Of a DNA stretch of 63,757 nt, positions 6,643 to 42,864 are shown piece after piece. The first letter of the stretch is position 1. Every line of letters starts with the position of its first letter. Made by a program: the position numbers and the translations under genes. This DNA comes from Candidatus Eiseniibacteriota bacterium (GTDB taxonomy: Bacteria; Eisenbacteria; RBG-16-71-46). Below the pieces are notes generated by a model that saw only the letters and a list, made by a program, of their open reading frames with translations, did no database searches and was not told the origin of the DNA. Location of the stretch: assembly GCA_038231135.1 (NCBI GenBank), contig JBBRLX010000027.1, positions 1 to 63,757 of the forward strand, written 5' to 3'.

Positions 6643-7115
6643 CTACTGGATGACGCACACCTTGGCGCGGGCGCTGTGCGAGCCCTGGGTGAGCTGGATC
6701 ACGTAGATCCCCGGGGCGGGAGCGTCGCGCAGCGTCACCGAGTGGGAACCAGCGGCGGCGCCCATAGGGAGCGCGCCGCCGCCCGCCGCCCGGTGACGTC
6801 GAACGCATCGACCCGGGCATCGCCCGCGACCGGCAACGTGAACGACAGGCCGAGCGGACCGTTCGTGGGATTGGGGCTCGGGCGCAGCAGCGCAAGCGTC
6901 AGGGTTGCGGGAATGTCGATCACGGTTTCGTCGGAGACGACATCGATGCGGGGCCGCGGGCGCGTTCCACCTGCGCCCGGTCGGACTGCACGGCCAGCCA
7001 GTGCACCCGAACGACTCCGTGGTCGAGTTCCGCCGCGCCGCCAGAAACCAGCGTCGGCGTCGAATGGTCGCCGCGGTTGGGCTGCACGACGAGCGCGCGG
7101 TAAGTGGATCCCTGC
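6643..7115 (-). pseudogene. Remnant 3' end of a secreted protein (Ig-like linker plus C-terminal sorting domain), two frameshifts
   Basis: Three frames give DHSTPTLVSGGAAELDHGVVRVHW...VER, then VSDETVIDIPATLTLALLRPSPNPTNGPLGLSFTLP...FDVTGR, then GSHSVTLRDAPAPGIYVIQLTQGSHSARAKVCVIQ*; no start codon or signal peptide. Confidence 0.75.
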
Positions 7116-7121
7116 CACGTC

Positions 7122-8147: not shown

Positions 8148-8339
8148 AACGAACCCTCCATGCTTCGCCGCAGGACGTGGTCCCGCAACCGGATGTTGGC
8201 GACCGTATCGGCGTCACCGACGGCCGATCTCCTTGCGGCCACGCCGCTCCAGTGTCTGCGGCGTGGCTCGTCGTGATGCGCGAGACCTGAAGGATGGAGC
8301 CGCGCATGCTCGTTCGAGCGCGCCGTCGGCGAGTGCCCC

Positions 8340-8355
8340 CGCAAGATAGCGGCCA
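8340..8355 (-). promoter_or_regulatory. Candidate sigma54 -24/-12 promoter (TGGCCGCTATCTTGCG)
   Basis: GG-N10-GC spacing with TGGC and TTGC, about 190 bp upstream of the 8147 start. Confidence 0.35.
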
Positions 8356-8452
8356 GTCACGGGCCTGTGAATCCGGGTTCGTGCTAACGTGACCGCGCGC
8401 CGTCCCTTGGGTGGCGAGAGCATTTCGAACGTCGACCGAACGAGGTCCCGTC

Positions 8453-9538: not shown

Positions 9539-9761
9539 ACTGCGCCTTCAGGTCGATGTTGTTGTCACGCAAAGAATTGGCGGGCTGGCGCCGGCTGATT
9601 GCCCCGGTGAAAATTCCAGCACCAGCACAAATCCTTCGCATGAATCATCGGAACCCCCTACCCTCCTATATATGTGAAAGCCACGTAACGCACGATTTCG
9701 CTGGCTGCGCCGTCCGCCAACGGTCGGCCCCTCATCGCAACGACGACCCCTCGGAGGGGAC

Positions 9762-12455: not shown

Positions 12456-12473
12456 CCGATTCGCGATTCACCT

Positions 12474-12512
12474 GCGGGCGGCGCGGTCGTACACTGCGCC
12501 GCCCGTTCTGTT
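12474..12512 (+). terminator. Probable intrinsic terminator
   Basis: GCGGGCGGCGCGG-TCGTACA-CTGCGCCGCCCGT stem followed by TCTGTT, just after the Kelch gene stop. Confidence 0.55.
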
Positions 12513-12553
12513 GGTTCGCGATCGCCTTCGAAGTGCGCATGCCCGGAGCCGCC

Positions 12554-13363
12554 ATGACTGACGTCGCCCAACCGTTCGACCCCGCGGAGGACGCGCACGT
12601 CGGACTGTGGGACGAGCTGCCGTTGTGGTCGGCGATGGCGGGCCTGCTGCTGCTCGACCACGTGCCGCTCGACGCGCGGCGGGTGCTCGACCTCGGGTGC
12701 GGCTCGGGATTCCCGGCGCTCGAGCTGGCGGAGCGACTCGGCTCGGGCGCGCGCGTCACCGGCATCGATCCCTGGGGGCCCGCGATCCGGCGCGCGAACG
12801 CCAAGCGGCGGTTGTGGCCGGTGCGCCACGTCGATCTGGTGCGCGGCGAGGCCGCGCGCCTGCCGTTCCGTGACGATGGGTTCGACCTGATCGTGTCGAA
12901 CCTCGGCATCAACAACTTCGCGGATGCCGAAACGGCATTCGGCGAATGCCGCCGGGTGCTGGCTCCGGGGGGCACCGTGGCCATCGCCACCAACCTGTTC
13001 GGGCACTTCGCCGAGGTATACGCGGCGTTCGCGGACGTGGTCGCGAGCGATCCCGCAGCCGCCGCGCGGCTGCGCACGCACGTCGAGCATCGTCCTACGA
13101 TCGACGGCCTCACCCGGACGCTCGCGCGCCACGGCCTCGAGGTCACGGACGTACACGAGCGCGCCCAGCGCATGCGGTTCCGCGACGGCAGCGCGGTCCT
13201 CGAGCATCATTTCATGCGGCTCGGGTTCGTGCCGGCATGGGAGGAGGTCGTGGGCGGCTCCGAACACCTGGGGCCGTTGCGCGCAGCGCTCGACCGGCGG
13301 GCGCGGGGCGCGGGTGGTCTCGAGCTCACGGTGCCGCTCGCGGTGGTGATCGCGCGGGCGTGA
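12554..13363 (+). CDS. Class I SAM-dependent methyltransferase
   Basis: VLDLGCGSG motif I, GIDPW, LPFRDDGFDLIVSN, RVLAPGG; ATG 12554 with GGAG RBS. Confidence 0.9.
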   Translation: MTDVAQPFDPAEDAHVGLWDELPLWSAMAGLLLLDHVPLDARRVLDLGCGSGFPALELAERLGSGARVTGIDPWGPAIRRANAKRRLWPVRHVDLVRGEAARLPFRDDGFDLIVSNLGINNFADAETAFGECRRVLAPGGTVAIATNLFGHFAEVYAAFADVVASDPAAAARLRTHVEHRPTIDGLTRTLARHGLEVTDVHERAQRMRFRDGSAVLEHHFMRLGFVPAWEEVVGGSEHLGPLRAALDRRARGAGGLELTVPLAVVIARA

Positions 13364-13432
13364 CCCTCTGTCGCGGCCCGGAGCCGGAGCGGTTACACTG
13401 CCGCCCTCGTCGGTCCATTCCGGGGGTTCCCA

Positions 13433-16234
13433 ATGCCGCATGGAGATCTCTTGCCGTCGCCGATCCCGGCGCAACGGCCCGTCGCAATGCTGTCGTGGAT
13501 GTTGTCGATGTTCGCCGTCTGCGTCGTCGCCGCGCCCGCCCCGGCCGCGGCCCCGGCGGCGCTGGGGCCGCCCGGCGTCACTGCAGCGAAACCTGCACCA
13601 TCGAAGCCCGTCGCGCGCGCCAACGCGGCTCCCGAGCTCACCGTCGATCACCTCCGCTCACTGACGTGGCGTTCGATCGGGCCCGCGAACATGGGCGGCC
13701 GGGTGTCCGAGATCACGCTGGTGCCGGGCAAGGCACACTCGGTGTTCGTCGGCACGGCCACCGGTGGTTTGTTCCGCACCGACAACGGCGGCACGACGTG
13801 GTCGCCGGTGTTCGACGATCAGCCGGTGATGTCGATCGGCAGCGTCGTCGTGGCGCCGAGCGATTCCCAGATCGTCTACGTGGGAACCGGCGAGGGCAAC
13901 GGCCGGAATTCCTCGACGTGGGGCAACGGCATCTACAAGTCCATGGATGGCGGCGGGAGCTTCACGCACCTGGGGGGCCTCGACGATTCGCGCGACATCC
14001 CGCGCCTCGCGATCCATCCGCGCGATCCCGACATCGTGTTCGCCGCCGTGATGGGGCACCTGTGGGACGCGAACCATGAACGGGGCCTCTACCGCACCAC
14101 CGACGGTGGCAAGTCCTGGAAGCCGGTGCTCCAGATCGACGACGACCACGGCTGCATCGATGTGGCGCTCGATCCCCACGATCCGCAGACGGTGTACGCC
14201 GCGATGTACGCGCGCCGCCGCACGCCGTGGAGCTTCCAGGGCGGCGGCTTCGGCGGCAAGGGCGGCATCTACAAGTCCACCGATGGTGGCGGGCATTTCC
14301 ACCGGCTGACGGCGGGGCTGCCGAAGCAGACCGGCCGCATCGGGCTGGCGGTGTCGGCGTCCCGGCCGGGGCACGTGTACGCGGTGGTCGAATCCGACGA
14401 CGCGGGCGTGGCCACGATCGACGAACAGATTTCGAAGGCTGGCGGAACGTTTCGGAGCGTCGACGGCGGCGAACACTGGGAGCGCCTCAACGGTCTCGCG
14501 CCGCGGTCGTTCTACTTCAGCAAGATCGTGGTCGACCCGACCGACGAGAACCGCGTCTACGTGCTGGGCTACGGGCTCGGCGTGTCCGACGACGGCGGCC
14601 GGACGTTTCTCGCCGACGGGGCGAAGCTGCCGCACGGCGACCTCCACACGCTCGTCGTGGATCCGCACGATCACGATCACCTGTGGCTCGGCACCGACGG
14701 CGGCGTCTACGAGAGTCTGGACCGCTCGAAGACCTGGAACTATCACCGAAACCTGGCGATCGGCGAGTTCTACGAGCTGGGCCTCGGCATGGACGATCCC
14801 TACACGGTTTGCGGCGGGCTGCAGGACAACGGCTGCTGGTGCGGGCCGTCGCGCGGCACGGCGTTCTTCGGCGAAGGCGACGGGGCCGCCGGCAAGAAGG
14901 TGCTGAACGCGAGCAACGAGGACTGGCGGTTCATCTGGGGCGGCGACGGCTACTACGTGCAGATTGACCCGCGCGATCCCGGCATCCGCTACGCGGAATC
15001 GCAGCAGGGCTACGCGGGGCGCATCGACCTGTCGACCGGCCGCGTCAAGGACCTGCGGCCGCGGGCCAAGGAAGGCACGCCGGCGCTGCGGTTCAATTGG
15101 AACACACCCATGCTGCTGTCACACCACGATCCCGACGTCCTCTATATCGGCGGCAACCGGCTGTTCCGGATCCACAACCCGGAAGGCACCGCCGAGCCGA
15201 TCTCGCCCGACCTGTCGAGCAAGGACGCCGAGAAGATCATCACCGACGGCTCGGGGGCGGAGACGCATGGCACGATTGTCACGCTCGCGGAGTCGCCGCT
15301 CACGAAGGGTGTGTTGTGGGCGGGCACCGACGACGGTCGCGTGTGGCTCACGCGCGACGAGGGCCGGAACTGGAACGAGCTGACGCCGGACCTGGGCCGG
15401 CTGGTGCCCAGGGGCACCTATGTGTCGCGCATCGAGGCGTCCCACTATTCGGCCGGCGCCGCGCTGGCCGCGTTCGACGGCCATCGCACCGGCGACAACC
15501 ACGCCTACCTGCTCGAGACCCGCGATGGCGGGAAGACGTGGCGCAGTGCGGCCGGCGACCTGCCCGCGCAGGGCCCGGTGCGCGTCGTGCGCGAGGATCC
15601 CGAGAACGAGCGGCTGCTGTTCGCCGGCACCGAATTCGGCGCGTTCGTGTCGCTCGACCGCGGCCGTCGCTGGCTGCCGCTGCGGCCCGAGGGATTCCCG
15701 TCCGTGCAGTTCCATGATCTGCAGATCCAGCCGCGCGACCGGGATCTCGTCGCGGCCACGCACGGACGTTCGATCTACATCCTCGACGACATCACCGGCC
15801 TCGAACAGCTTACGCCGGAGGTGATGGCGAAGCCCGCGGTGCTGCTGAAGCCGCGGCCCGCGCACGGCTCCTACATGCGGCCGCGCGGCGGCATGTGGGG
15901 AGACGATCAGTTCGGTGCCGCCAACGGCGGGCCGCAGGCGACGCTCAACTACTGGATCAAGGAGCGGGACCGCGAGGGTGTGAAGCTGACCGTCAAGGAT
16001 TCGCTGGGGCACGTCGTGCGCGAGCTCGAAGGCCCCGCGGAGGCCGGGCTCAATCGCGTGACCTGGGACCTGTCGCGCGACAAGGAGCAGCGCTACGACA
16101 CGATCGATGCCGACCGCACCGGCCAGTTCGTGTTCGTCCCTGCCGGCACCTACGACATCGAGCTCAAGGCGGGCAAGGACAAGTCGTCGGCGAAGCTGGT
16201 GGTGAGCCTTCCCAGGGGAGTCGGCGGACCGTAG
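13433..16234 (+). CDS. Secreted VPS10/sortilin-like BNR (Asp-box) repeat glycosyl-hydrolase-like protein
   Basis: WRSIGPANMGGRV, repeated S.DGG.TW Asp boxes, GGLQDNG, RFNWNTP, ATHGRS.YILDD; start codon uncertain. Confidence 0.9.
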   Translation: MPHGDLLPSPIPAQRPVAMLSWMLSMFAVCVVAAPAPAAAPAALGPPGVTAAKPAPSKPVARANAAPELTVDHLRSLTWRSIGPANMGGRVSEITLVPGKAHSVFVGTATGGLFRTDNGGTTWSPVFDDQPVMSIGSVVVAPSDSQIVYVGTGEGNGRNSSTWGNGIYKSMDGGGSFTHLGGLDDSRDIPRLAIHPRDPDIVFAAVMGHLWDANHERGLYRTTDGGKSWKPVLQIDDDHGCIDVALDPHDPQTVYAAMYARRRTPWSFQGGGFGGKGGIYKSTDGGGHFHRLTAGLPKQTGRIGLAVSASRPGHVYAVVESDDAGVATIDEQISKAGGTFRSVDGGEHWERLNGLAPRSFYFSKIVVDPTDENRVYVLGYGLGVSDDGGRTFLADGAKLPHGDLHTLVVDPHDHDHLWLGTDGGVYESLDRSKTWNYHRNLAIGEFYELGLGMDDPYTVCGGLQDNGCWCGPSRGTAFFGEGDGAAGKKVLNASNEDWRFIWGGDGYYVQIDPRDPGIRYAESQQGYAGRIDLSTGRVKDLRPRAKEGTPALRFNWNTPMLLSHHDPDVLYIGGNRLFRIHNPEGTAEPISPDLSSKDAEKIITDGSGAETHGTIVTLAESPLTKGVLWAGTDDGRVWLTRDEGRNWNELTPDLGRLVPRGTYVSRIEASHYSAGAALAAFDGHRTGDNHAYLLETRDGGKTWRSAAGDLPAQGPVRVVREDPENERLLFAGTEFGAFVSLDRGRRWLPLRPEGFPSVQFHDLQIQPRDRDLVAATHGRSIYILDDITGLEQLTPEVMAKPAVLLKPRPAHGSYMRPRGGMWGDDQFGAANGGPQATLNYWIKERDREGVKLTVKDSLGHVVRELEGPAEAGLNRVTWDLSRDKEQRYDTIDADRTGQFVFVPAGTYDIELKAGKDKSSAKLVVSLPRGVGGP

Positions 16235-27105: not shown

Positions 27106-27352
27106 GATGCGAGTCGGGCACAGGCACGCTCAGCCGCGTGGCCGCCCACCCGGAGTTGCGCCTGGTGCCTGAGGCAGTACAGGACTACACTGTCCGTACG
27201 TCGTCGACTGACGACAGCCCGCCCCGTTCGCGTCATCCATGATCGAAGGCCAAGACCCGACTCTTCGCTACCCCCCGCAAGACATTGGCGCGGCCGCGCC
27301 GGTCGAGGATTCTCCGCGGTGAACACCAGCGAACGTGAGGAGGGCAGTCCCG

Positions 27353-30300
27353 ATGCGAGCCCTGACAATCGTATTCCGCATTGCCATCCCCGTGGCGGTG
27401 CTGGTGTCCTTTGGGGAACGTGCGGCTGCGGACGCGGAGGTCACGTCGTTCATCGTGGCGCCCGGAACGGAGTCTTTCGATGGAGTGCGGGCCGATTCGC
27501 TGGTGACTGCGTTCCCCGGTCGAACTGCCGGCGTTCCCATTCTGCGCTCCGTTCCTCGCGGCCTGCCGCGGCAGAAGTTTCCCCGCTCCACCGGTGACCC
27601 ACAGGGCAGGTGGTCGCGATTGGGATACGCCGACCCCGAGCCGCGCGACTCTCCGTCGCTGGTCTATGACCCGATTCGCAAACGCCTGATTCTATTCGGC
27701 GGCTTCGATGGGTCGGAATACCACAATGATACCTGGGAGCGGCCCGCCGATGGCGAAACCGAATGGCAACGGCTGCCGTTGGAGGGTCGCCTGCCGCCGG
27801 GCCGCAGCCGCCACGTCGCGGTGTTCGATTCCATCGCCGACGCCATGGTCGTGTACGGCGGTCAGGACGCGAATCACTACCTTGGTGACATCTGGACCCT
27901 GGATTTGAAGGGCGGGACCGGCTGGCGCGAGCTCGAGCAGGCGGACGAGCCCCGGCCCGTTCCGCGGGGAGGCTGCGTGGGTGTGCTCGAAACGACCCGT
28001 CATCGCCTCGTGATCGCGGCCGGCGCCACCGATCTGACCGTGTTGAACGACGTGTGGGGGTTCGACCTCGATACGGGTCACTGGGCCACCATGGTTCCCC
28101 AGGCGGTCGAAGCGCTTGCCCGTTCGCATCTGGCGCTTGCGTATGATTCGCGGCGGCAGCGCTGGCTGGGCTTCGGGGGTGAGGGTTACAACGACCTGTT
28201 GTCGTGGGACATGGCGCGCGGCAACGGCTGGTCGAAGCTCGACTACGCGGACCAGGGGCCCGTCGGGCTCGGGGACCCGTGCGCGGTGTACGACTCGCTG
28301 CGGGATCAGTTGATCGTCCTCGGTGGATCAGCGGATCCGGACTTCGCGATGGAGCTGTCGGTGATCGACCTCGCGCGGCAGACGCGCGGCGCTCCGCGCC
28401 ACGTTCCGGGTGAACAGCCGCCCCCACTGCATGGCGCCGCGGCGGTCTACGACCCGCTGCATGACCGCGTGCTGGTCTTTGGCGGCGCCACCGAATCTGC
28501 CGTGATGGGGGATCTATGGCAGTTGAGTCTGGGTGACTCGATGCACTGGACCCGCCTCGCCGGACCGGGTTCCGGCGCACCGAGTCCGCGTGAATATGCA
28601 TCCTCCGTGTACGATCCGGTGCACAGGCGCTGGGTGATCCTGTTCGGCTGGGACGGCTCGAAGCCGTTGAGGGATATCTGGAACTATGATTTCGAATCAG
28701 GCCGCTGGTCGCAGAACCTGTTCGCCGACTATGGCTTCCCCGCTCCCGGACTCTACGGTGTCGCCACCGCGTACGATCCCATCCACAATCGAGTTCTGCT
28801 GTTCGGTGGCTCCGACGGGGTGAACTGGCTGCAGAATGCATGGCAGTTCGAGATGGCGCCCGAGCCGGATCGGCTGTCGCCGCTCGCCGTGATCGGCGAC
28901 TGGCCCCGCAAGCGCGCGTTCGCCAGCGCATTCTACGACCCGTCGCTCGACGCCATGCGGATGTTCGGCGGCCAGCCCGAAGGCGGCGGGTCATCCTATG
29001 GTGACCAGTGGATCATGCGGACGATGGACTTCCACGCCACCTGGCAACGCTGGGTAGCCCCCGACGCAACCCCGAAGCCTCATGCGTTCGGCTCCGGGAT
29101 CTACGATCCCATCGGAGACCGGTTGGTCGAGGTGGGGGGCTGGCAGGATGCTCACACCCTGTTGCCGCGCGTCTGGAGCATCGGATTGGCTGATTCGATC
29201 CCACACTGGAGCCACTATGGAACGGGCATCGAGGCGTATGGAGGAGTTGCGGGGTATGATGCCGGTCGGCAGCAAATGGTGATATTCGGCGGCAATCTCG
29301 GCTCCGAACGCACGAATACAGTGTGGGACGTACCGCTGGCGGACGAGCCGATCCTGCCGGCCTCGCCGGCCGGTCCGACGCCGGCGCCCCGGTACCTGCA
29401 CGCGGCCGCGACCGATCCTCATGGTCATCGAATGTTCGTTTACGGCGGCGCCGCGTACCTTTCGACCAACCGGGACCTGTTCGGGGATTTGTGGGAACTG
29501 GATTTCGACGGCGCAGGCGCCTGGCATCGCCTGCTCGCTTCGCCGCCGTTCCCCGAACAGCGGTCGACTCACGCAGCGCTCTACGATGCGGCACGGGATC
29601 GAATGCTGCTGTTCGGCGGCGGGACGCTCGACGACTCGGTCTGGGTGTTGCCGCTGGGTGGTGCGCTGCGGTGGTCGAAACTCGCGACGCAGGGGCCCTC
29701 GCCCGGCTGGCGTGCGGGCCCGGGCATCGTCTACGACGCCAGACGTGATCGAGCCATCGTGCTGGGCGGGTCGCAGGGACCCACCTCTCCGCTCAAGGAC
29801 GCGTGGGCGCTCACGTTGTCGGAACCTCCCACCTGGTCGCTCATCGTTCCGCGCGACACGCTGCCCGAGGGCGGCGAGAACTCGAGTTGTGTCTATGACT
29901 CGTTGCGCGACCGGATCGTCGACTTCGGAGGAGATGTAACGTTTCAACGCAGGCGATTCGACTACTGGCGGTTCCGGCCGGGCGCATTCGCGCTGTCATT
30001 GGCAGATCCTACGTGGAGCCGTCTCGACGTCGTCGGCGGTCCCGCCGGAAATCGTACGAATCAGGCCGCCGCTCTCGAGCGCTCGGGCACTACGATCCTG
30101 AGTTTCGGCGGCGTGGACGATCAGGTCGACGGAACGGTCTGCGACACGTGGGCGATCGCGCTGGACAGCACGCGATTCGCGTACCAGTCGGTCGACGCGT
30201 GCACCGGGCCCGCCGCCGCCAACAGTCCCACCATCGTCCGGGACCCGGATCACCAAACGCTCCTTCTCAATGAGGGCAATCCGTCCACCGTGTGGATCCG

Positions 30301-30769
30301 GCCCGATGATGGCTCGGGTGCGTGGCAGCAGGTCGCCGTGGGCGACACGATTCCCGAGCCACGCATCGAAAGCTCCGTGGTGTTCGATACCCGCCGCGGA
30401 CGCATGTTGATGTGGGGAGGCAATATCGGCCCCGTCAATTGCATCGCGCTGTGGGCATTCACGCCCGGCTCGCCGCCCTACCCACGGCCGAGACCGCGTC
30501 CGCCGAACTCGCAGTTCGCGCTGCGCACTTCGAGTCCGGCGCGCGGCTGCGTCGGTGTTGCCTTCACGCTGCGCGACCGCGAGCCCGCGCAACTCGAACT
30601 CTATGACATCGCGGGGCGGCGGGTGGCGTCCCACGATGTCGGAAATCTGGGAGCGGGCGAGCATCGGCTCCAACTCGCGGAAACGACCGGACTCGCGCCC
30701 GGGATCTATCTCGTGAGGCTGAGACGTGTTGACGAAATCAGCACCTCGCGCGTGGTCCTGTTGAAATAG
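27353..30769 (+). CDS. Large secreted Kelch-repeat protein with C-terminal sorting domain
   Basis: Signal peptide; about 17 Kelch-like blades (YDP...R.LLFGG....D.W); C-terminus LYDIAGRRVA...LAPGIYLVRL. Confidence 0.9.
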   Translation: MRALTIVFRIAIPVAVLVSFGERAAADAEVTSFIVAPGTESFDGVRADSLVTAFPGRTAGVPILRSVPRGLPRQKFPRSTGDPQGRWSRLGYADPEPRDSPSLVYDPIRKRLILFGGFDGSEYHNDTWERPADGETEWQRLPLEGRLPPGRSRHVAVFDSIADAMVVYGGQDANHYLGDIWTLDLKGGTGWRELEQADEPRPVPRGGCVGVLETTRHRLVIAAGATDLTVLNDVWGFDLDTGHWATMVPQAVEALARSHLALAYDSRRQRWLGFGGEGYNDLLSWDMARGNGWSKLDYADQGPVGLGDPCAVYDSLRDQLIVLGGSADPDFAMELSVIDLARQTRGAPRHVPGEQPPPLHGAAAVYDPLHDRVLVFGGATESAVMGDLWQLSLGDSMHWTRLAGPGSGAPSPREYASSVYDPVHRRWVILFGWDGSKPLRDIWNYDFESGRWSQNLFADYGFPAPGLYGVATAYDPIHNRVLLFGGSDGVNWLQNAWQFEMAPEPDRLSPLAVIGDWPRKRAFASAFYDPSLDAMRMFGGQPEGGGSSYGDQWIMRTMDFHATWQRWVAPDATPKPHAFGSGIYDPIGDRLVEVGGWQDAHTLLPRVWSIGLADSIPHWSHYGTGIEAYGGVAGYDAGRQQMVIFGGNLGSERTNTVWDVPLADEPILPASPAGPTPAPRYLHAAATDPHGHRMFVYGGAAYLSTNRDLFGDLWELDFDGAGAWHRLLASPPFPEQRSTHAALYDAARDRMLLFGGGTLDDSVWVLPLGGALRWSKLATQGPSPGWRAGPGIVYDARRDRAIVLGGSQGPTSPLKDAWALTLSEPPTWSLIVPRDTLPEGGENSSCVYDSLRDRIVDFGGDVTFQRRRFDYWRFRPGAFALSLADPTWSRLDVVGGPAGNRTNQAAALERSGTTILSFGGVDDQVDGTVCDTWAIALDSTRFAYQSVDACTGPAAANSPTIVRDPDHQTLLLNEGNPSTVWIRPDDGSGAWQQVAVGDTIPEPRIESSVVFDTRRGRMLMWGGNIGPVNCIALWAFTPGSPPYPRPRPRPPNSQFALRTSSPARGCVGVAFTLRDREPAQLELYDIAGRRVASHDVGNLGAGEHRLQLAETTGLAPGIYLVRLRRVDEISTSRVVLLK

Positions 30770-33546: not shown

Positions 33547-34806
33547 ATGCCCACGATCCGGTCGTCCGGGATGCGTCCGCTGCTCCTGATCCTCGCCACG
33601 GCCTGTGTCGCGCTGGCATGGATCGCGCTGTGCGCCCCGCGGGACGTCACGGCCACACCCGCCTACGCGCGCCGGTTCGGCGTCGAGTGCCAGACGTGCC
33701 ACTCGCCGAATCCGCCCCGGCTGAACAACGTCGGCATGGTGTTTCGCCGTTCGGGATTCCGGCTTCCCGACGCCGATGATTCGGGCAAGCTCATGCTCAA
33801 GGCCGTACCCGCGACGACGATCGGTGATGCGGCGGCGATCGCGGGTCAGTTCGACGGAACGCTGATTCAGACCCCCGAACCGGGGGCGAGCAAGTCGACG
33901 TTCGAGCTCAGCGAGGTCGAGTTGATCACCGGCACCTCGATCGGCGACCACTATTCGGCGCAGATGCTGTTCATACCCTATAACGATGCCGGCGAGTCCG
34001 AGCTCGAGAACGCCGAGTTCCAACTCAACTACGGTAAGCCGGGGAGCCAGCTCATCGTCCGTGGTGGAAAGATGCAGCCGCTCGTGTGGCAGAAGGCGGG
34101 ACACGGGAGCATGACGCAGTCCTCGCCCCTGATTCTCGACGAGGGTTCGCCTGCGGCGATCGGCGACTTCGCGGGCCCCGGCTTGAGCCACATGCTGGCC
34201 GGCATGGAAGTCGGCTATATGGGAGCGAGCCTCAAGAACGGCAAGCTCATGTCCGGAATGGTCTCGGTTGCCGCGTTGAACGGCTTCGCGGCCGACGGCA
34301 GCGATGCGCGGACCCATTCCGGAGATGGCATGGACGTGCTCGCGCAGGCTACGGCGCTGTTCGGGTCGCGCAACACCGCGAACGTCTACTACTACGACGG
34401 CCACACGGTCGTCGATCCGGGTGGTGTGCTGACGGTGCCCGGGCCGTTCCGCGACCGGTTCACGCGCTATGGCGTGACGGGCAACTTCGCGCCGGTCGAC
34501 CGCATCGATCTCGCGGCCGGATTCGGCGGCGGCAAGGACAAGTCCGACCAGTTGGCACGCGACGTCACCATAAACGGCTACTACGGCGAAATCACCGGCG
34601 AGATCCTGCCGCACTGGATCGCGACCTACCGCTACGACAACGTGAAACCCGACAAGGACGACGACAACTTCAAGATCAGCGATCACGTGATCGGCACGAC
34701 GTATCTGCTGGAGAGCACGGTGTTCCTGTCCCTGGAGTACCAGGAGATCAAGGTTATCGAGGACAAGTCGCACGGGGTCCTGGCCCGCATCCGCGTGCTC
34801 TATTGA
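33547..34806 (+). CDS. Fused monoheme cytochrome c-porin (Cyc2/ExtI-like)
   Basis: ATG 33547 with GGAGG RBS; signal peptide, then ATPAYARRFGVECQTCHSPNPPRLNNVGMVFRRSGF (AxPx[F/Y]AR..GxxCxxCH..PxL..G..F...G[F/Y]); ~350-aa amphipathic barrel ending RIRVLY. Confidence 0.85.
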   Translation: MPTIRSSGMRPLLLILATACVALAWIALCAPRDVTATPAYARRFGVECQTCHSPNPPRLNNVGMVFRRSGFRLPDADDSGKLMLKAVPATTIGDAAAIAGQFDGTLIQTPEPGASKSTFELSEVELITGTSIGDHYSAQMLFIPYNDAGESELENAEFQLNYGKPGSQLIVRGGKMQPLVWQKAGHGSMTQSSPLILDEGSPAAIGDFAGPGLSHMLAGMEVGYMGASLKNGKLMSGMVSVAALNGFAADGSDARTHSGDGMDVLAQATALFGSRNTANVYYYDGHTVVDPGGVLTVPGPFRDRFTRYGVTGNFAPVDRIDLAAGFGGGKDKSDQLARDVTINGYYGEITGEILPHWIATYRYDNVKPDKDDDNFKISDHVIGTTYLLESTVFLSLEYQEIKVIEDKSHGVLARIRVLY

Positions 34807-34837
34807 TTCTGGGATGTTCTTCCGAGGGGGAGGCTGA

Positions 34838-35320
34838 ATGAGGGCAACCAACGTGCGGCGGATCTATGCGCTCGCGGTCCTGGTACTGGTGTCGCTGGCT
34901 GCCGCAGGGCTGGGGCAGGCGGAGCAGGAGAGTGTCGCGGCACTGAAGGCCCGGCTCAAGAAGCTCGACTCGGGCCCGAAGACGCTCGACGTCGCCAAAT
35001 ACCCCAAGGACATGCAGGCCGGCTACGCGCTGTTCGAGAAGAAGTGCGCCAAGTGCCATAGCCCGGCGCGCGCGATCAACAGCGGCTTCGTTCTGCCGGG
35101 AGAGTGGGAGCGCTACATCAAGCGTATGGTGTTCAAGCCGGACTCGAAGATGACCGAGACCGACGGCAAGGCGATCTACCGGTTCCTGGCTTACGACTCG
35201 AGCGTCCGCAAGGCCGAGAGCCTGCGCGCGCACCTCGCCAGCCTGACGCCGGAAGAGCGCGAGGCCGCGATCGCAAAGATCAAGACGCTGAACCCCGCGT
35301 TCGAGCCGGCCGGCAAGTAG
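34838..35320 (+). CDS. Periplasmic monoheme cytochrome c (P840 c-551 C-terminal-domain-like)
   Basis: GGAGG RBS; signal peptide; LFEKKCAKCHS...W..YIKRM..KP. Confidence 0.85.
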   Translation: MRATNVRRIYALAVLVLVSLAAAGLGQAEQESVAALKARLKKLDSGPKTLDVAKYPKDMQAGYALFEKKCAKCHSPARAINSGFVLPGEWERYIKRMVFKPDSKMTETDGKAIYRFLAYDSSVRKAESLRAHLASLTPEEREAAIAKIKTLNPAFEPAGK

Positions 35321-35329
35321 GCGGAACCC

Positions 35330-35809
35330 ATGACCGGGCACGAGATCGGGAACGCCCGCAACCCGTCGCGACGGGCATTCCTGAGCAACCTGGTGCTCGG
35401 AGTCGCGGCGACGCTCGGCGCGGCCACGCTGGCGCAACGGTTCTTCCAGTTCCTGTCGCCGCCCCGGCCTCCGGAGCGCGTGGTCGAGATTCCGGCGATC
35501 GCGCTCGCCGCGATCCCGGACGGCGGCGGCACGATCGTGAACCTGCCGGGCGGTCACGTCGCGATCGAGCGAACGGGCGACACGGTGCGCGCGTTCTCGG
35601 CGGTGTGCACCCACCTGGGATGCGTGATCCAGTGGCAGCCCGTGGCGGGACAGGCGTGGTACTGCCCCTGCCACCACGGTCGCTACGACCGTGACGGACG
35701 GGTGGTCGGCGGCCCGCCGCCGCGCCCGCTGACACCGATCGCGGCGGTGGTGCGCGACGGGCAGGTGGTGGTGAAGCTCACCGTGCGTCCGCCCGCGGGA
35801 ACGATGTGA
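35330..35809 (+). CDS. Rieske [2Fe-2S] subunit of a Rieske/cytochrome b complex
   Basis: Tat motif SRRAFL plus TM helix; box I CTHLGC, box II CPCHHGRY, GPPPRPL. Confidence 0.92.
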   Translation: MTGHEIGNARNPSRRAFLSNLVLGVAATLGAATLAQRFFQFLSPPRPPERVVEIPAIALAAIPDGGGTIVNLPGGHVAIERTGDTVRAFSAVCTHLGCVIQWQPVAGQAWYCPCHHGRYDRDGRVVGGPPPRPLTPIAAVVRDGQVVVKLTVRPPAGTM

Positions 35810-36843
35810 CGGCACAGGCGCTGCGCCGCTGGCTCGCCGAGCGCGTGCCGATTCCCATCGAGGAGTTGCGAAAACCGCTGCGCGAGGAGCTGCCCGTGCA
35901 CCTGCGCACTTGGGTGGGGTGGCTCGGCGGCACGCCGCTCGTGCTGTTCGGCATCCAGGTCATCACCGGGATCCTGCTCACGTTCTACTACACGCCCGAT
36001 CCGTCGCGGGCGTTCGACAGCGTGCGCCGCATCACGTTCAGTTTGCGGTTCGGGTGGCTGATCCGCAGCCTGCATCAGAACGCGGCGCAGTTGATGATCG
36101 TGGCGCTGCTGCTGCACATGATCCGGGTGTTCGTCACCCGCGCCTACCGGCGCCCGCGCGAGCTGACCTGGGTATTCGGTGTCGGGCTGTTCCTGCTGGC
36201 ACTGGGCTTCGGTTTCACCGGCTATTCGCTGGTCTACGACTCGCTGTCCTACTGGGCGACGACCGTCGGCACCAACCTGCTGGGCAACGTGCCGGTCGTG
36301 GGCGCGCAGCTGCTGTGGCTGCTGCGCGGCGGACCCGAGGTGAACCCCAACACGCTGTCGCGCTTCTACAACTTCCACATCGGGGTGCTGCCGACGCTCA
36401 TGGTGCTGGTGATCGGAGCCCACCTGCTGCTCGTGCGCCTGCACGGCGTCGCGCGGCTCGAAGGGGATCCGCGCCGCGAGACCTACGATTTCTTCCCCGA
36501 ACACGTGCTGCGTGAGGCGGCGATCGCGATCGTATTGTTGTTCGCGCTCGTGGTGTATGCCACCGCGCGGCCCCCCGGAATCGGCGAGCCCGCCGATCCC
36601 AACTTCACGCCGGCGCACATCCGCCCCGAGTGGTACTTCTTCCCCTCGTACCGGTGGCTCAAGGTCGTGCCGATGCAGGTGGGCATCTGGACGTCCGCGG
36701 CGTTCGTCCTCGCCATGCTCGGCTGGCCGTGGATCGACGCCGCACTCGAGCGGCTGGCGCCCGGAAGGCGTCTCGGCCTCTGGCTGGGATCCGCGGGATT
36801 CGTATTCACGCTCGTCCTGTTCCTATGGGAGGCGCTGTCATGA
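35806..36843 (+). CDS. petB: Cytochrome b (cytochrome b6 plus subunit IV-like regions in one chain)
   Basis: QVITGILL, GWLIRSLH..AAQLM...LLLHM.RV, PRELTW, GFTGYSL, SYWA, RFYNFH...AHL, HIRPEWYF; GTGA overlap with the Rieske stop. Confidence 0.93.
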   Translation: MTAQALRRWLAERVPIPIEELRKPLREELPVHLRTWVGWLGGTPLVLFGIQVITGILLTFYYTPDPSRAFDSVRRITFSLRFGWLIRSLHQNAAQLMIVALLLHMIRVFVTRAYRRPRELTWVFGVGLFLLALGFGFTGYSLVYDSLSYWATTVGTNLLGNVPVVGAQLLWLLRGGPEVNPNTLSRFYNFHIGVLPTLMVLVIGAHLLLVRLHGVARLEGDPRRETYDFFPEHVLREAAIAIVLLFALVVYATARPPGIGEPADPNFTPAHIRPEWYFFPSYRWLKVVPMQVGIWTSAAFVLAMLGWPWIDAALERLAPGRRLGLWLGSAGFVFTLVLFLWEALS

Positions 36844-37322
36844 CGCTTACGGCTCAGAAGCTGATCGTGGCGTGCCTGAGCCTCGCGCTCGTGGCGGCGC
36901 TGTTCGCGGCGGGATCGGTGGACGCCCGCCGCCAGGCCAGCGCGCGCAAGCATGCGGACGCGTTGCTCGATGACGCGGCGAATCCGCAAGGGGCGCGCGG
37001 CAAGGCGGTGTTCACGAAGTACAGTTGCAATGCGTGTCATGGGGCGGGCGGCGCCGGCGGCATGATGAACATCAATGCCGAGAGCGGGGGCAAGGTGAAC
37101 GGGCTCCTGCACGTCTCCGAGACCTATACGGCCGACGAGTTGGCCGAGAAGATCCGCGGCGGGGTCCCGCTCGTGGGCAAGGCCGACCCCACCGGGCCCG
37201 AGCCCCCGCTCCGCATGCCGCCATTCCGCGACCTGATCGCCGGCCAGGAATTGCGCGATCTGGTGGCGTACCTCATGAGCCTGCGGCCGCCGCCGGGTGA
37301 GGCGAAGTCGTCGGGCTGGTGA
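36840..37322 (+). CDS. Membrane-anchored or periplasmic monoheme cytochrome c
   Basis: ATGA overlap with cytochrome b; hydrophobic N-terminus; RGKAVF.KYSCNACHG, MPPF (Met ligand), LVAYLMSL. Confidence 0.9.
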   Translation: MTLTAQKLIVACLSLALVAALFAAGSVDARRQASARKHADALLDDAANPQGARGKAVFTKYSCNACHGAGGAGGMMNINAESGGKVNGLLHVSETYTADELAEKIRGGVPLVGKADPTGPEPPLRMPPFRDLIAGQELRDLVAYLMSLRPPPGEAKSSGW

Positions 37323-37372: not shown

Positions 37373-38437
37373 TTACGTGTTGTCGTGGCGGGGCATGTCG
37401 ATCGTGAAGATGCAACCCTTGCCGGGCAGGTCGCGCACGCGAACCTCGCCGCCGCTCGCCTGGATTCCCCTGCGGCTGATGGAGAGTCCGAGCCCGAGGC
37501 CCTCCCGATTCGTTCCCACTCGCGTAAAGGGACGAAACATGGTCTCGACGTCACCCGGCGGCAGCCCGCCGCACTCGTCCTCGACCTCGAACAGCACGCG
37601 ATCCATCGTGGCGGAGGTCTTCAACGATACATGACCGTGGTAATGGCTGAACTTGAAGGCATTCTGCAGCAAATTGGTCACGGCTGCCGAGAGCGTGGGC
37701 CGGTCGGCGTCGACCGCGAGCCCGTGCTGGACCGGCATGACGGTGAACTCGACGCCGCGGGCATTGGCCTCGAGCGACGCGTCGACTTCGATCTCCTCGA
37801 CGAATTCGGTCACGGAAATACGCTCCCGGTTCTGGACCCCGGAGTCGATGCGGACCTCGGTCAGCGACCGGTCGATGAGGTCCCGCAGGCCGCGCAGGTT
37901 GCGGTCGAGCACGGCGCCCGTGCTGCCGCCGATGCCGACGAGCCCGCTCTTGAGAGTCGCGTGTGCCAGCATCGCGGCGCTGAGCTTGTTGCGCAGCTCG
38001 TGCGCGAGCGATCCCAGGCGCTCCGTCTCCGCATGGTTCTGCGAAGCCTGGCGCAGGCGCGTGTACTCGGTGACGGCGATCGCGATGGCGTCGTCCAGGC
38101 ACCGGGTCAACGTGTGGAACTCGTCGTTCGTGATCGGCGCGTGGGTCTCCGTGGCCATCTCGGTGACGGCCTGGCAGATGTCGCCGTAGTCATGAACCAC
38201 CTGGGCGACCGTGAATCCCATGCGCAGCAGATCGGCGCCATGAATGGTGGCGCTCGCGCCGATGGCGTCGGTGTCGGGCAGTGACAGGCGCAGTTGCTCG
38301 ACGAGCTGGTCGAGGAACAGCGGCACGCCGTTCTGGAGTTCCTCGGGGGTGGGCCGGGGGGCCAGGCGCTTCGCGACCTTGGCCCGCGTCCGGGCGATGA
38401 TCTCGGCGCGATTCTTCGTGACGAATTCGTGGAGCAT
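37373..38437 (-). CDS. Cytoplasmic sensor histidine kinase with N-terminal helical (RsbRD_N-like) domain
   Basis: LAHELRNKL (H box), NLLQNAFKF, EDECGGL, GLGLGLSI; N-terminus HGADLLRMGFTVAQVVHDYGDICQA. Confidence 0.9.
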   Translation of the reverse strand: MLHEFVTKNRAEIIARTRAKVAKRLAPRPTPEELQNGVPLFLDQLVEQLRLSLPDTDAIGASATIHGADLLRMGFTVAQVVHDYGDICQAVTEMATETHAPITNDEFHTLTRCLDDAIAIAVTEYTRLRQASQNHAETERLGSLAHELRNKLSAAMLAHATLKSGLVGIGGSTGAVLDRNLRGLRDLIDRSLTEVRIDSGVQNRERISVTEFVEEIEVDASLEANARGVEFTVMPVQHGLAVDADRPTLSAAVTNLLQNAFKFSHYHGHVSLKTSATMDRVLFEVEDECGGLPPGDVETMFRPFTRVGTNREGLGLGLSISRRGIQASGGEVRVRDLPGKGCIFTIDMPRHDNT

Positions 38438-39899: not shown

Positions 39900-40391
39900 A
39901 TGCGAAGGCTGCTGGCAGGTTGTCTGGCGCTGCTCGTCGTTGCGATGCCAGTGTCGGCCAGGACGGCGAAGGCGCCGGCCACTCCGCCGGCGTTCTCGCT
40001 GCCGACGCTGTCGGGCCCGGTATCGCTCGATTCGCTGCGCGGCAAGGTGGTCATGGTGGACTTCTGGGCGTCGTGGTGCGAACCCTGCCGGAAGTCGTTC
40101 CCCTGGATGAGCACGCTCCAGCAGCGCTACGGACCCAGGGGGTTCGCGATCGTCGCCATCAATCTCGACAAGTCCCGGGACGCGGCGGACCAGTTCCTCG
40201 CGGAATTCCCGGCGCCGTTCCTGGTGGCATTCGACCCCGTCGGCAAGACCGCCGAAGCGTACAAGGTGAAGGCGATGCCGTCGGGCTGTGTGATCGGGCG
40301 CGACGGCAAGATCCTCGAGACGCACGCGGGTTTCGACGCGAAGCGCGCGGCGGCCATCGAAGCAGTGATCGCCGGGGCGGTGTCGAAATGA
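39900..40391 (+). CDS. TlpA/ResA-like thiol-disulfide oxidoreductase
   Basis: Signal peptide; LRGKVVMVDFWASWCEPCRKSFPWM; Y.VKAMPS. Confidence 0.92.
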   Translation: MRRLLAGCLALLVVAMPVSARTAKAPATPPAFSLPTLSGPVSLDSLRGKVVMVDFWASWCEPCRKSFPWMSTLQQRYGPRGFAIVAINLDKSRDAADQFLAEFPAPFLVAFDPVGKTAEAYKVKAMPSGCVIGRDGKILETHAGFDAKRAAAIEAVIAGAVSK

Positions 40392-40615
40392 GCCCGCGCA
40401 CGCGACTCGCATGGGGGCTCGTGCTGCTGCTCGCCGCGATGGCGGCCAGCGGCTGTGCGACGGTGCGGCCCTGGGATCGCGACCTGCTCGCCGAGAAGAA
40501 GATGCGGTTCGTGCCCGTTCCGCTCGAAGCCGCCGCGGACGACCACATCTATTTCAGCACCGAGGGTTCCACGGGCGGAATGGACGCCGCCGGCGGAGGC
40601 TGCGGGTGCAACTAG
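40388..40615 (+). CDS. DUF4266 family lipoprotein
   Basis: ATGA overlap with TlpA; lipobox ASG-C; VRPWDR..LA...M; HIYFS.EG; terminal GGGCGCN. Confidence 0.9.
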   Translation: MSPRTRLAWGLVLLLAAMAASGCATVRPWDRDLLAEKKMRFVPVPLEAAADDHIYFSTEGSTGGMDAAGGGCGCN

Positions 40616-41943
40616 AGGATCGCGGCGGCGCGAGCGTCCGCCGGCGGCTGGCCGCGGCCGCGTGTGTATTACTGGCGGCCGGAGCGCCCGGCGCCGCGAG
40701 CGGGCAGAGCGCGACGCCGGCGGCGGCGACCGGCGAAGCCGCGGTGAAATGGCGGTTCGAAGGCTCGGGCCTGCTCTATGGCGAGCAGAGCCGCGCCAAC
40801 GTCGTCGAGCCGGTGGCGCGCATCACCCGGCTGTTCTCGAGCGGGCAGGCGCTGTCGGCGCAGTTCACGCTGGACGCCATCACGGGCGCGTCACCGACCG
40901 GCGCGATGCCGTCGGGCACGGTGCAGACCACGACCTCCGCCTCCGGCCAGACATCGACGACGGCGGCCAATGCGGTCCCGACGCATCCGTTCCATGATCT
41001 TCGGGGAGCGCTGGATCTGCAGTGGGTGCGTCCGATCGGCTCGCTCGTCACCATCACCGCCGGCGGCCATGCATCCCGGGAAAAGGACTACCAGTCGCTC
41101 GGCTCGCATGGCACGTTGTCGGTCGATCTGCTGCACCGCCTCACCACGGTCACGCTCGGTGGAGCCGTATATCACGATGGTGTGTTCCCGGTCGGCGGAA
41201 CTCCGGTCGGGCTTGCCGACAGCACGGTGGCAAAACACTTCGGAACGCAGGCCAAGGACGTCACGACCGCGCTTGCCGGAGTGTCCCAGGTGCTCAGCCG
41301 GCGCTGGATGCTCGGGGTCACCGCATCCCGCACCCGCGAGACCGGGTACCTCACCGAACCTTACAAAATCGTGAGCGTCCTCGATCCCACGACGGGCCTG
41401 CCGACCGGGCAGTTGACCGAGAACCGCCCATCCAACCGGATGCGCAACGACGTTCTGACGAGCTCGGTGTTTCACTTCGACAGCGACGTGTTCTATCTCT
41501 CGCACCGCTACTACTGGGACGACTGGCGCATCCATTCCAACACACTCGACATCAAGGTGCGGCACGACATTTCGCAGGACATGTGGATCCAGCCGCACGT
41601 CCGTGGCTACGAACAGTCGAGCGCGCAATTCTTCGTGTTCGGTCTGACCCACGGGCCGCCGGCGTCGCTGCCGACGTACGCGAGCGCGGACGACCGCCTG
41701 GGTCCGCTGCGCTCCGTGACGCTCGGCGCCACCTATGGGTTCCGCGTGCCCGGGCAGCCGGGCGAGTTCACGATCCGCGGCGAGTACATGTATCAGTGGG
41801 TGTCCGGCCAGCCCGCGGGGCCGAGCCTGCAGCAGAACAACGGTGAGAACGAGAACGGCGGAACCGCAGGCGGGACGGGCGGTGGATCCGTTTCCGGAAC
41901 CAGTATCGGATCGCTCCTGGCCGGCTACACCGTTCAGTTCTGA
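40606..41943 (+). CDS. DUF3570 family outer-membrane protein with flavinylation motif
   Basis: GTG start overlapping the DUF4266 end; LYGE..R, DAITGASPTG, F.D.R, SREKDYQS, GYLTEPY, RYYWDDW, SADDRL; terminal F. Confidence 0.85.
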   Translation: MQLEDRGGASVRRRLAAAACVLLAAGAPGAASGQSATPAAATGEAAVKWRFEGSGLLYGEQSRANVVEPVARITRLFSSGQALSAQFTLDAITGASPTGAMPSGTVQTTTSASGQTSTTAANAVPTHPFHDLRGALDLQWVRPIGSLVTITAGGHASREKDYQSLGSHGTLSVDLLHRLTTVTLGGAVYHDGVFPVGGTPVGLADSTVAKHFGTQAKDVTTALAGVSQVLSRRWMLGVTASRTRETGYLTEPYKIVSVLDPTTGLPTGQLTENRPSNRMRNDVLTSSVFHFDSDVFYLSHRYYWDDWRIHSNTLDIKVRHDISQDMWIQPHVRGYEQSSAQFFVFGLTHGPPASLPTYASADDRLGPLRSVTLGATYGFRVPGQPGEFTIRGEYMYQWVSGQPAGPSLQQNNGENENGGTAGGTGGGSVSGTSIGSLLAGYTVQF

Positions 41944-41949
41944 GGCTCC

Positions 41950-42864
41950 GTGTCCGTTCGGTCGCAGCCAGGGAACGCGGGCTCGCTGTCGCTCGAACGT
42001 CGCGGGGATCACTTCCTCGGACGGTTCGTGGCGATGGCGAGCCCGTGCGAGTTGCTGGTGGATACCGATGACCGCGACGAAGCGGCGGCGGCGCTCGAAA
42101 TCGTGCGGGCCGAGGCGCTGCGCGTCGAGCGCAAGTTCAGCCGCTACCGCGACGACAACGTCGTTCACGCCATCAATCATGCCGGCGGTCGCCCGGTCGA
42201 AGTCGACGACGAGACAGCGAGGCTGCTCGACTACGCCGCGACATGCCACGAGATGTCGGAGGGTCGCTTCGACATCACGTCGGGTGTGTTGCGACGGGTG
42301 TGGACGTTCGACGGCGGCGATCGTGTGCCGGACCCGGCCGCCGTGGCCGAGGCACTGGGGCACGTCGGGTGGCAGCGGGTGACCTGGAGCGGCCGCACTC
42401 TCGTCATGCCCGCGGGCATGGAGATCGACCTCGGTGGCGTGGGGAAGGAATACGCGGTCGACCGGGCGGCCGGGCTGGTGCCTGCCGCGACCCGGGCCGC
42501 GTGCGTCGTCAACTTCGGAGGTGACCTGGTCGCCTCCGGTCCGCGGCGCGGGGACCAGCCGTGGAACGTGGGCGTGGACGATCCGGAGCGCACCGGTGAG
42601 GCCGCGCTGTGGCGGATCGAGTTGTCGCGCGGCGGACTCGCGACCAGTGGTGACGCCCGCCGCTTCGTGATGTGGAACGGGCGCCGGCTCGGGCACGTGC
42701 TCGACCCGCGAACCGGCTGGCCGGTGGCGGGGGCGCCGCGCTCGGTCACCGTGCTCGCCGCGACCTGCGTCGAGGCGGGCATGCTGGCCACGCTCGCGTG
42801 CCTGCGCGGCCCCGCCGCCGCGCGGTTCCTCGAGGAGCAGGGCGTGCGGTTTCGCATCGTGTGA
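41950..42864 (+). CDS. apbE: FAD:protein FMN transferase
   Basis: F.AMASPCE, KFSRYR, SEGRFDITSG, IDLGGVGKEYAVD, VNFGGD, ATSGD, HVLDPRTGWP, SVTV. Confidence 0.93.
   Translation: MSVRSQPGNAGSLSLERRGDHFLGRFVAMASPCELLVDTDDRDEAAAALEIVRAEALRVERKFSRYRDDNVVHAINHAGGRPVEVDDETARLLDYAATCHEMSEGRFDITSGVLRRVWTFDGGDRVPDPAAVAEALGHVGWQRVTWSGRTLVMPAGMEIDLGGVGKEYAVDRAAGLVPAATRAACVVNFGGDLVASGPRRGDQPWNVGVDDPERTGEAALWRIELSRGGLATSGDARRFVMWNGRRLGHVLDPRTGWPVAGAPRSVTVLAATCVEAGMLATLACLRGPAAARFLEEQGVRFRIV

Follow-up and report, generated by a model that had tools for sequence, protein, structure and literature searches.

A predicted Cyc2-type haem-porin and a Rieske/cytochrome b complex in one compact operon of an Eisenbacteria genome: a possible route from menaquinone to the cell surface

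With which partners does a Cyc2-type outer membrane cytochrome work in a heterotrophic bacterium, and in which direction would the electrons flow? Cyc2 homologues serve as metagenome markers of iron oxidation, many of them are found in heterotrophs, Eisenbacteria included (PMC9769843), and the function of the distant homologues has been called uncertain (10.1101/228056). The question is raised by a stretch of 63,757 nucleotides from Candidatus Eiseniibacteriota (contig JBBRLX010000027.1 of assembly GCA_038231135.1), referred to below as the window, in which a gene for a Cyc2-type porin is followed by genes for a monohaem cytochrome c, a Rieske protein, a cytochrome b and a second monohaem cytochrome c. 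The initial annotation of this DNA had proposed a possible conduit linking the quinone pool with the cell surface, working either as reverse electron flow from Fe(II) or as quinol-driven export. In the present analysis, the five genes are a co-inherited cassette, and what is new is the compact joining of a Cyc2-type porin with a Rieske/cytochrome b complex in a single operon, systems that link porins and cytochromes to quinone being already known. Outward flow from menaquinone would be the preferred, if tentative, reading.

The five co-oriented open reading frames, their gaps and overlaps and their motifs were all recovered as initially annotated (Table 1). Spacers of 31 bp and 9 bp separate genes 1 and 2 and genes 2 and 3, respectively, and the two remaining junctions are 4-bp overlaps (GTGA and ATGA). 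The G+C content at third codon positions is 0.87-0.91 across all five genes, and GGAG/GAGG-like sites are located upstream of genes 1, 2, and 5. Motifs found in the cassette are ATPAYARRFGVECQTCHSPNPPRLN, CAKCH, the twin-arginine sequence SRRAFL, both Rieske boxes, four haem-b histidines, PEWY, and CNACH. A promoter scan returned no sites, terminators were found only at chance level, and there is no RNA dataset among the listed holders of the operon sequence.

Table 1. Coordinates of the five-gene cassette and of the motifs and parts discussed in the text
Feature	Position	Strand	Description
Gene 1	33547-34806	+	419 amino acids; Cyc2-type fused monohaem cytochrome-porin
Cyc2 signature of gene 1	33652-33723	+	ATPAYAR, 5 residues, CQTCH, 4 residues, PRL; Tyr replaces consensus Phe
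Gene 1 parts (residues)			predicted signal peptide ~1-35; haem domain 36-95; 16-strand barrel 97-418; long loop 3 177-216 (barrel from the model)
Gene 2 (cytA)	34838-35320	+	160 amino acids; monohaem cytochrome c, CAKCH
Gene 3	35330-35809	+	159 amino acids; twin-arginine Rieske [2Fe-2S] protein
Gene 4	35806-36843	+	345 amino acids; cytochrome b, PEWY
PEWY of gene 4	36625-36636		Qo motif
Gene 5 (cytB)	36840-37322	+	160 amino acids; class I monohaem cytochrome c, CNACH

The porin gives the cassette its character. An AlphaFold2 model built with 64 homologues (pLDDT 91) starts with a helix, followed by a small helical domain that surrounds CQTCH and by a barrel of 16 strands, in agreement with the barrel first proposed for gene 1. 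OprP and OprO are the top folds by Foldseek, OprP being first (E 2e-12), and OprP also came first by VIA-align, with a Z-score of 25.1 and an rmsd of 3.1 for 300 aligned residues; no Pfam or NCBIfam family was matched at E 0.1. Cyc2 itself is predicted to be a 16-strand barrel with OprO and OprP as templates, and it carries AXPXFAR[Q/K][T/Y] five residues before CXXCH and PXL four residues after it (10.1101/228056). Of the Cyc2 signature that had been assigned to gene 1, the spacing is identical and the PXL element is present; Tyr stands in the place of the consensus Phe, and ATPAYARRF deviates at three consensus positions in all. Among close homologues, Tyr occupies the place of this Phe in 86 of 105, and the strict form AxPxFAR is present in 5/105 close and 53/126 distant proteins, the relaxed form in 93/105 and 89/126, respectively (26 of 257 proteins were excluded from this census as shorter than 330 amino acids). 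C48, C51, and H52 are invariant in all 64 aligned rows, and 102 of the 105 close homologues of at least 330 residues possess a single CXXCH and none a second one. The FeGenie rule for Cyc2 asks for one CXXCH near the N-terminus and a length of 375 residues or more (PMC7005843), and gene 1 agrees with it in length and in the position of CQTCH (residues 48-52). By fold and motif spacing, gene 1 would work as a structural Cyc2, with haem attached at CQTCH and, from standard porin topology, the haem domain presumably at the periplasmic side. His186, looked at as sixth haem ligand, occurs in 52/64 aligned rows and is absent from distant homologues. The mature porin is net acidic (45 Asp/Glu versus 32 Lys/Arg), as are the predicted outer loops, and therefore a cation may be better suited as solute.

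No named or characterised Cyc2 was reached by sequence from solved structures, plasmids, Atlas clusters (all "hypothetical") or a broad profile, and a search of genome contigs with the single porin sequence returned one locus. ExtI of Geobacter had initially been taken for an architectural relative of gene 1. This had to be given up, since NF040900 is not matched by gene 1 at E 0.1 and by only one of 94 relatives (E 0.0064), and since ExtI is described as a porin and other ext genes as cytochromes.

Genes 3 and 4 display the hallmarks of a Rieske/cytochrome b complex, i.e., a twin-arginine Rieske protein with both boxes adjoining a four-histidine cytochrome b with a Qo motif. Gene 3 matches PF00355 above cut-off, contains the boxes CTHLGC and CPCHHGRY with the G-Y signature, and is the sole Rieske-box pair in a pattern scan of the genome. 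Gene 4 matches PF00033, PF13631, and PF00032 above cut-off and is the sole PF00033 match in the genome; a cytochrome b6-like N-terminal part is fused to a subunit-IV-like C-terminal part, with seven hydrophobic segments and the four haem-b histidines. Its closest solved structures are cytochromes b6, and its top NCBIfam match is ExtP, at 209 bits versus a cut-off of 290. Gene 4 does not conform to a b6f- or b6c-type complex with haem ci, because the Cys of CxGG is absent and the b6-like and IV-like parts are fused; in WLGG of gene 4, Trp replaces the haem-ci Cys, and Trp or Ala is found at this place in 15/15 orthologues shown, with one row unmatched by the pattern.

The two small cytochromes would have different places. 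In gene 2, C70, C73, H74, and M97 are invariant in 59 rows, Met97 being the likely sixth haem ligand. There is a weak, sub-threshold likeness to SorB and to Chlorobium cytochrome cz, which were also the top weak rows of a fold search without a match at E 0.001. Gene 5 carries CNACH followed by RMPPF and matches PF00034 and PF13442 above cut-off, and no solved-structure relative was found at E 0.1. Across 14 sequences, the N-terminus of gene 2 is variable, like the porin signal peptide (identity 0.22 versus 0.71 in the core), whereas in gene 5 the N-terminal helix and the core are equally conserved (0.69 each), the helix being comparable in this respect to the Rieske anchor (0.62). Because of this difference, gene 2 is likely to be exported and soluble, and gene 5 is likely to be a membrane-anchored cytochrome c subunit of the complex. 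A complex prediction for the porin with cytA reached a score of 0.42 versus 0.00 for the best control, with 90% or more of the contacts shared between runs and a partner pLDDT of at least 81. The mark applied is passed by 116/157 solved complexes and by 2/215 mismatches; at scores of up to 0.60, it is reached by 18/157 solved complexes and by both passing mismatches. The prediction lends weak support to a porin-cytA contact.

Conserved synteny had been proposed as a check of the operon, and the full five-gene order recurs in 14 further distinct loci, which are those of Eisenbacteria relatives and of contigs resembling Vicinamibacterales. Nine of 31 metagenome loci show the complete order (eight distinct ones, because L002 and L023 are identical in coordinates and identities and are counted as one), six agree up to the contig end and seven end too early; the others comprise one locus in which a cytochrome on the opposite strand comes after porin and cytA, six with other partners and two with no redox neighbour. 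Six further genomes add complete copies. Spacing is tight in 13 of 13 loci measured, with gaps of 2-68 bp or 4-bp overlaps. Within the phylum, a close porin (E <1e-147) and a cytochrome b of at least 70% identity occur in the same eight of 206 genomes; cytA adjoins the porin in seven of these, and in the eighth the porin match is at a contig end. Several clades are common to the porin tree and the cytochrome b tree (for the latter, 27 loci were dropped as duplicates of longer loci, and five duplicate rows were retained). The Eisenbacteria kinship initially suspected is supported; the porin of G151, a genome of the same family, is identical to an NCBI protein named from Candidatus Eisenbacteria. 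Since L004, L013, and the truncated L019 cluster with porins named from Vicinamibacterales, the cassette probably spans two phyla. Its occurrence is patchy, the same-genus genome G133 being without it. The cassette of genome G101 is followed by a dihaem cytochrome and by another Cyc2-like porin, a distant one (L067, 1819-3676).

Trivial origins of the arrangement can be dealt with briefly. An assembly artefact is ruled out by the repeated order in orthologous loci and by two public sediment runs (X1 and X2), in each of which the operon is unbroken in one contig; the X1 contig differs from the window's DNA in three letters and three gaps over more than 6 kb, the X2 contig in none. As both runs may be the source of the same DNA, they are a check on assembly only. 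Chance gene order is ruled out by the 14 other distinct complete loci, with identities of 42-86% and flanks varying by lineage. For a recent foreign insertion, composition gives no sign (GC 0.672 in the cassette versus 0.681 in the window); against an easy dismissal stands G133 (97% complete), with neither a close porin nor a cytochrome b match.

The pair of porin and cytA is not confined to the five-gene form. In L024-L027 (~6860-15209), it precedes pentahaem, molybdopterin-type, 4Fe-4S, and NrfD-type genes with QrcA-D as best matches, below cut-off (Qrc/ACIII-like), and the start of an L029-like flavoprotein. The porin of L027 and an Armatimonadota-named protein are identical, and the NrfD-type gene of this locus is broken across two reading frames. 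In L028 and L029 (L029, 6983-13656), the pair precedes a GltD-like flavo-FeS protein, a Rieske protein of the S-F type, a split b6 with the haem-ci Cys, subunit IV, and a hexahaem cytochrome. In five genomes examined (L116, L118, L119, L121, and L131), flavoprotein-Rieske-b6 operons are led by more distant Cyc2-like porins, and the porin is followed by an uncharacterised 196-amino acid protein, a flavoprotein, a Rieske protein, split b6/IV, and multihaem and monohaem cytochromes; a PAS-LuxR regulator heads four of these five loci. Genome G110 combines a distant Cyc2-like porin with a Rieske-cytochrome b-heptahaem set. In the cytochrome b cluster L133 (3065-10385), heptahaem, monohaem, and MtrA-like decahaem cytochromes and an MtrB-like porin follow, which is a different outer membrane conduit in the same position, and genome G171 holds an MtrA/MtrB-like pair within its cytochrome b cluster. 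The cytochromes b adjoining Cyc2-like porins fall in three separate well-supported clades. The initially noted link of the porin to quinone complexes recurs with three cytochrome b clades and with a Qrc/ACIII-like complex. By count, 16 of 115 listed porin matches lie at most 6 kb from a listed cytochrome b versus about 0.5 expected, a crude chance estimate, and the kin counted are not independent. This count rests on the 150 of 268 porin matches that were listed, hand-merged to 115 genes, of which weak rows may lack the haem motif, and on 150 of 173 cytochrome b matches.

Several relatives of these arrangements were seen alongside. Two further Cyc2-like genes of the window's genome (L075, 5914-7077, on C20, and L076, 6769-8088, on C6) have no cytochrome neighbours. 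L149-L152 encode another kind of porin-like protein, whose CxxCH lies at residue 81, and then a protein of 370-420 amino acids with a cytA-like domain; in L149 (4271-11735) and L151, a flavoprotein, a Rieske protein, and split b6/IV come next. In L120 (7423-8091), a 223-amino acid protein with a Cyc2-like N-terminal motif and five CxxCH, too short for a barrel, comes after a Rieske/cytochrome b/octahaem set. Of the phylum's other cytochromes b, those with the highest scores (L122, L123, and L124; 42-45% identity) precede octahaem or tetrahaem genes and a protein of 715-785 amino acids which, judged by its N-termini, resembles periplasmic nitrate reductase.

On the reading we hold possible and prefer, the cassette would constitute an electron path from the menaquinone pool outward to the cell surface, via the porin haem to a high-potential acceptor. 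The Rieske/cytochrome b complex most likely oxidises menaquinol, with the electrons reaching genes 5 and 2, and a Q-cycle would conserve energy. Electrons would pass to the cytochrome c of gene 5, likely anchored, and then to that of gene 2, likely soluble, which would reduce the haem of the Cyc2-type porin, predicted to sit as a plug in the barrel's inner opening. The porin haem, finally, would reduce a small high-potential acceptor entering the pore. This acceptor would have to lie above ~+200 mV, which would suit Fe(III) in chelated or acid-soluble form and soluble Mn(III) or Cu(II), but not ferrihydrite.

By sequence signatures and genome context, outward flow appears more likely than inward flow. 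PEWY is present in 15/16 gene 4 orthologues (one truncated). Reverse-running bc complexes have non-carboxylate Qo motifs, PPWY being reported from Acidithiobacillus, PAWY from Leptospirillum, and APWY from complexes proposed to run in reverse (PMC4122944); gene 4 has none of these. The Rieske protein has G-Y in 12/15 complete orthologues and G-F in 3/15, and Ser in none; G-Y after the second box corresponds to ~200 mV and G-F to ~150 mV, such centres being tied to menaquinol (PMC4122944), and a potential of ~200 mV is predicted for gene 3. The genome contains MqnC of the menaquinone pathway over cut-off and two cytochrome c assembly matches; UbiG was not found over cut-off and RuBisCO and ACS were without a match in this genome, which is 93% complete. 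Forward quinol oxidation is favoured over uphill flow because of PEWY, the G-Y Rieske signature, the menaquinone-pathway gene, and the lack of a RuBisCO or ACS match; of the two directions between which the choice was originally left open, it is reverse flow that these signatures and the genome context weigh against. For export count, in addition, the presence of cluster 3 cyc2 in iron reducers (PMC7005843) and the outward bc1-to-Cyc2 flow modelled in A. ferrooxidans (PMC8790237).

A wider proposal, which we regard as doubtful when all its parts are taken jointly, is that a portable porin-cytochrome module plugs into different quinone complexes, that its five-gene form would be a minimal Q-cycle-coupled export wire and some Cyc2 proteins would act as reductases, and that heterotrophic Eisenbacteria and Acidobacteria would respire extracellular acceptors with monohaem cytochromes only.

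A considerable number of points weigh against outward flow. The purified Cyc2 proteins in the cited papers, as far as their texts were accessible, are all Fe(II) oxidisers, and their potentials range from -130 to +560 mV. Ferrihydrite, at 0 +/- 100 mV, is out of reach of a chain starting at a ~200 mV Rieske centre, and a mineral surface lies beyond the reach of a single haem at the periplasmic side. The rule on Qo motifs is correlative, PPWY and PAWY being also tied to acid adaptation (PMC4122944). Linkage, too, has exceptions: no listed cytochrome b lies close to 99 of the phylum's 115 listed Cyc2-like matches, among them two other copies in the window's genome; in L022, porin and cytA are followed by an opposite-strand cytochrome, and L031 and L032 are without redox neighbours. 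The Qrc/ACIII-like partner is ambiguous as to direction. In the window's genome, which is 93% complete, no MtrA/MtrB match was found, and the search for ATP-citrate lyase had no working control. The genome is, moreover, equipped for oxygen respiration, with oxidases of the caa3 and bd types along with an ACIII-like complex, and therefore gene 2 has another possible acceptor. ACIII and caa3 are used here as probable labels, based in part on gene order.

From this equipment follows a close rival, which we consider unlikely, though seriously to be reckoned with. The porin would take electrons from Fe(II) or another solute and the complex those of menaquinol, and both inputs would converge on gene 2 and from there on the caa3 oxidase; nothing would be transferred between surface and quinone either way, and the cassette would serve a mixotrophic aerobic respiration. 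Both ends would then run in their best-documented direction, tested Cyc2 proteins oxidising Fe(II) and the complex having forward signatures, the oxidase is present in the genome, and a Cyc2-cytochrome-oxidase route has been proposed for Acetobacteraceae (PMC10715153). Yet no terminal oxidase was recognised adjoining the cassette in 13 loci with listed flanks, as read by N-termini and motifs, the ACIII-like complex is already available for quinol oxidation, and the recurrent neighbour of the porin-cytA pair is a quinone-linked complex. Truly uphill flow, with Fe(II) as reductant of the porin haem and menaquinone reduced by a Q-cycle that is reversed at the expense of the proton-motive force, is rather improbable. 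It can draw on the known Cyc2-rusticyanin-CycA1-PetI route of A. ferrooxidans, proposed also for Mariprofundus (PMC13741234), on one Cyc2 at -130 mV (PMC13692758), which makes a low-potential donor side possible, and on the NAD(P)-type flavoprotein of related operons. The five-gene cassette, however, is without the flavoprotein, its Qo motif is PEWY and not PPWY, PAWY or APWY, and with RuBisCO and ACS not found there is no evident demand for reverse flow, other fixation routes being possible.

Less probable still is a porin for a solute other than iron, such as a chalcogen oxyanion or a small redox-active organic compound, with a catalytic or sensing haem and the complex as electron source or sink. 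The closest folds are indeed the anion porins OprP and OprO, the ext cluster joins a porin required for selenite/tellurite reduction to a Rieske/cytochrome b pair, and ExtP is the best NCBIfam match of gene 4, if below cut-off; but ExtI is not matched, multihaem, rhodanese, and selenoprotein genes are absent from the cassette, and the acidic mature porin with its acidic predicted outer loops would accommodate a cation better. Finally, an ordinary menaquinol:cytochrome c reductase might merely travel with an unrelated porin-cytochrome pair, which is very improbable. Most Cyc2-like genes of the phylum lie apart from cytochrome b, and the pair of L022 is without the complex; this is set against the tight spacing in all 13 loci, the exact co-occurrence in eight genomes, and the repeated linkage in separate cytochrome b clades.

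How, then, does the cassette compare with known systems? Cyc2, Cyc2PV-1, and Cyt572 share with gene 1 a signal peptide, one N-terminal CXXCH, the spacing of AxPx(F/Y)AR and PxL, a length above 375 residues, and a predicted OprP/OprO-like 16-strand barrel (10.1101/228056; PMC13741234); the tested proteins come from autotrophic iron oxidisers and, in the texts accessible, none is shown in an operon with Rieske/cytochrome b, and gene 1 has Tyr for Phe. The Cyc2-rusticyanin-CycA-bc1 route of A. ferrooxidans is the same chain of haem-porin, periplasmic carriers, and Rieske/cytochrome b, and has been modelled both ways (PMC13741234, PMC8790237). In this acidophilic autotroph, however, the parts belong to separate operons (rus, petI, and petII; PMC13741234, PMC10654088), the carriers are rusticyanin and c4 cytochromes, and the complex is of the bc1 type with PPWY, whereas the cassette is a single 3.8-kb unit with two monohaem cytochromes, a b6-like seven-helix cytochrome b with PEWY, and a menaquinone pathway in the genome.

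The Geobacter cluster extHIJKLMNOPQS joins an OprO/P-family porin with a Rieske protein (ExtO) and cytochrome b (ExtP; PMC5877670). As described there, the ExtI porin is not a cytochrome, ExtP is short with a separate ExtQ, and the 4- to 12-haem cytochromes (ExtKL/M/N/S), the selenoprotein, and the rhodanese ExtH have no counterpart in the cassette. What the ext cluster anticipates, by analogy, is the logic of the operon and not the architecture of gene 1. MtoABD-CymA, PCC3, and PCC4 likewise assemble a porin, cytochromes, and a quinone-active inner membrane protein in one cluster (PMC5566968), but with multihaem conduits and CymA or a simple b-type membrane protein, no Rieske protein being named in the accessible part of that paper. 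The eight-gene Cyc2-flavoprotein-Rieske/b6 operons resemble the cassette in that a Cyc2-like porin heads a Rieske/cytochrome b operon; they differ in their distant porin, separate cytochrome b clade, split b6/IV, S-F Rieske protein, NAD(P)-type flavoprotein, and multihaem cytochrome. Cyc2 has been reported in Eisenbacteria genomes without gene context (PMC9769843), and the accessible parts of PMC13510729 and PMC10732223 do not describe this operon. In mainly open literature, covered by main texts without supplements, no published Cyc2-type gene sharing one operon with Rieske/cytochrome b was found, in accordance with the initial view that the five-gene unit is not known to have been described.

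The cassette names likely partners of one heterotroph Cyc2-type porin, and its size allows it to be expressed as a whole, by which donor, acceptor, and direction become testable. If outward flow were true, some iron-oxidation marker counts would point the wrong way, and energy-conserving extracellular respiration would need no multihaem wire; if both inputs converged on gene 2, a simple route to iron-assisted respiration in heterotrophs would be at hand.

The surroundings of the cassette in the window contain some further genes. A short histidine kinase without sensor domain (37373-38437) converges on the cassette end. A string of genes for a TlpA-like redoxin, DUF4266, DUF3570, and an ApbE flavin transferase (39900-42864) is located 2.6 kb downstream and was not seen adjoining the cassette in the other listed loci. 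A 1144-amino acid Kelch-repeat protein with a weak C-terminal sorting-type domain is encoded at 27335-30769.

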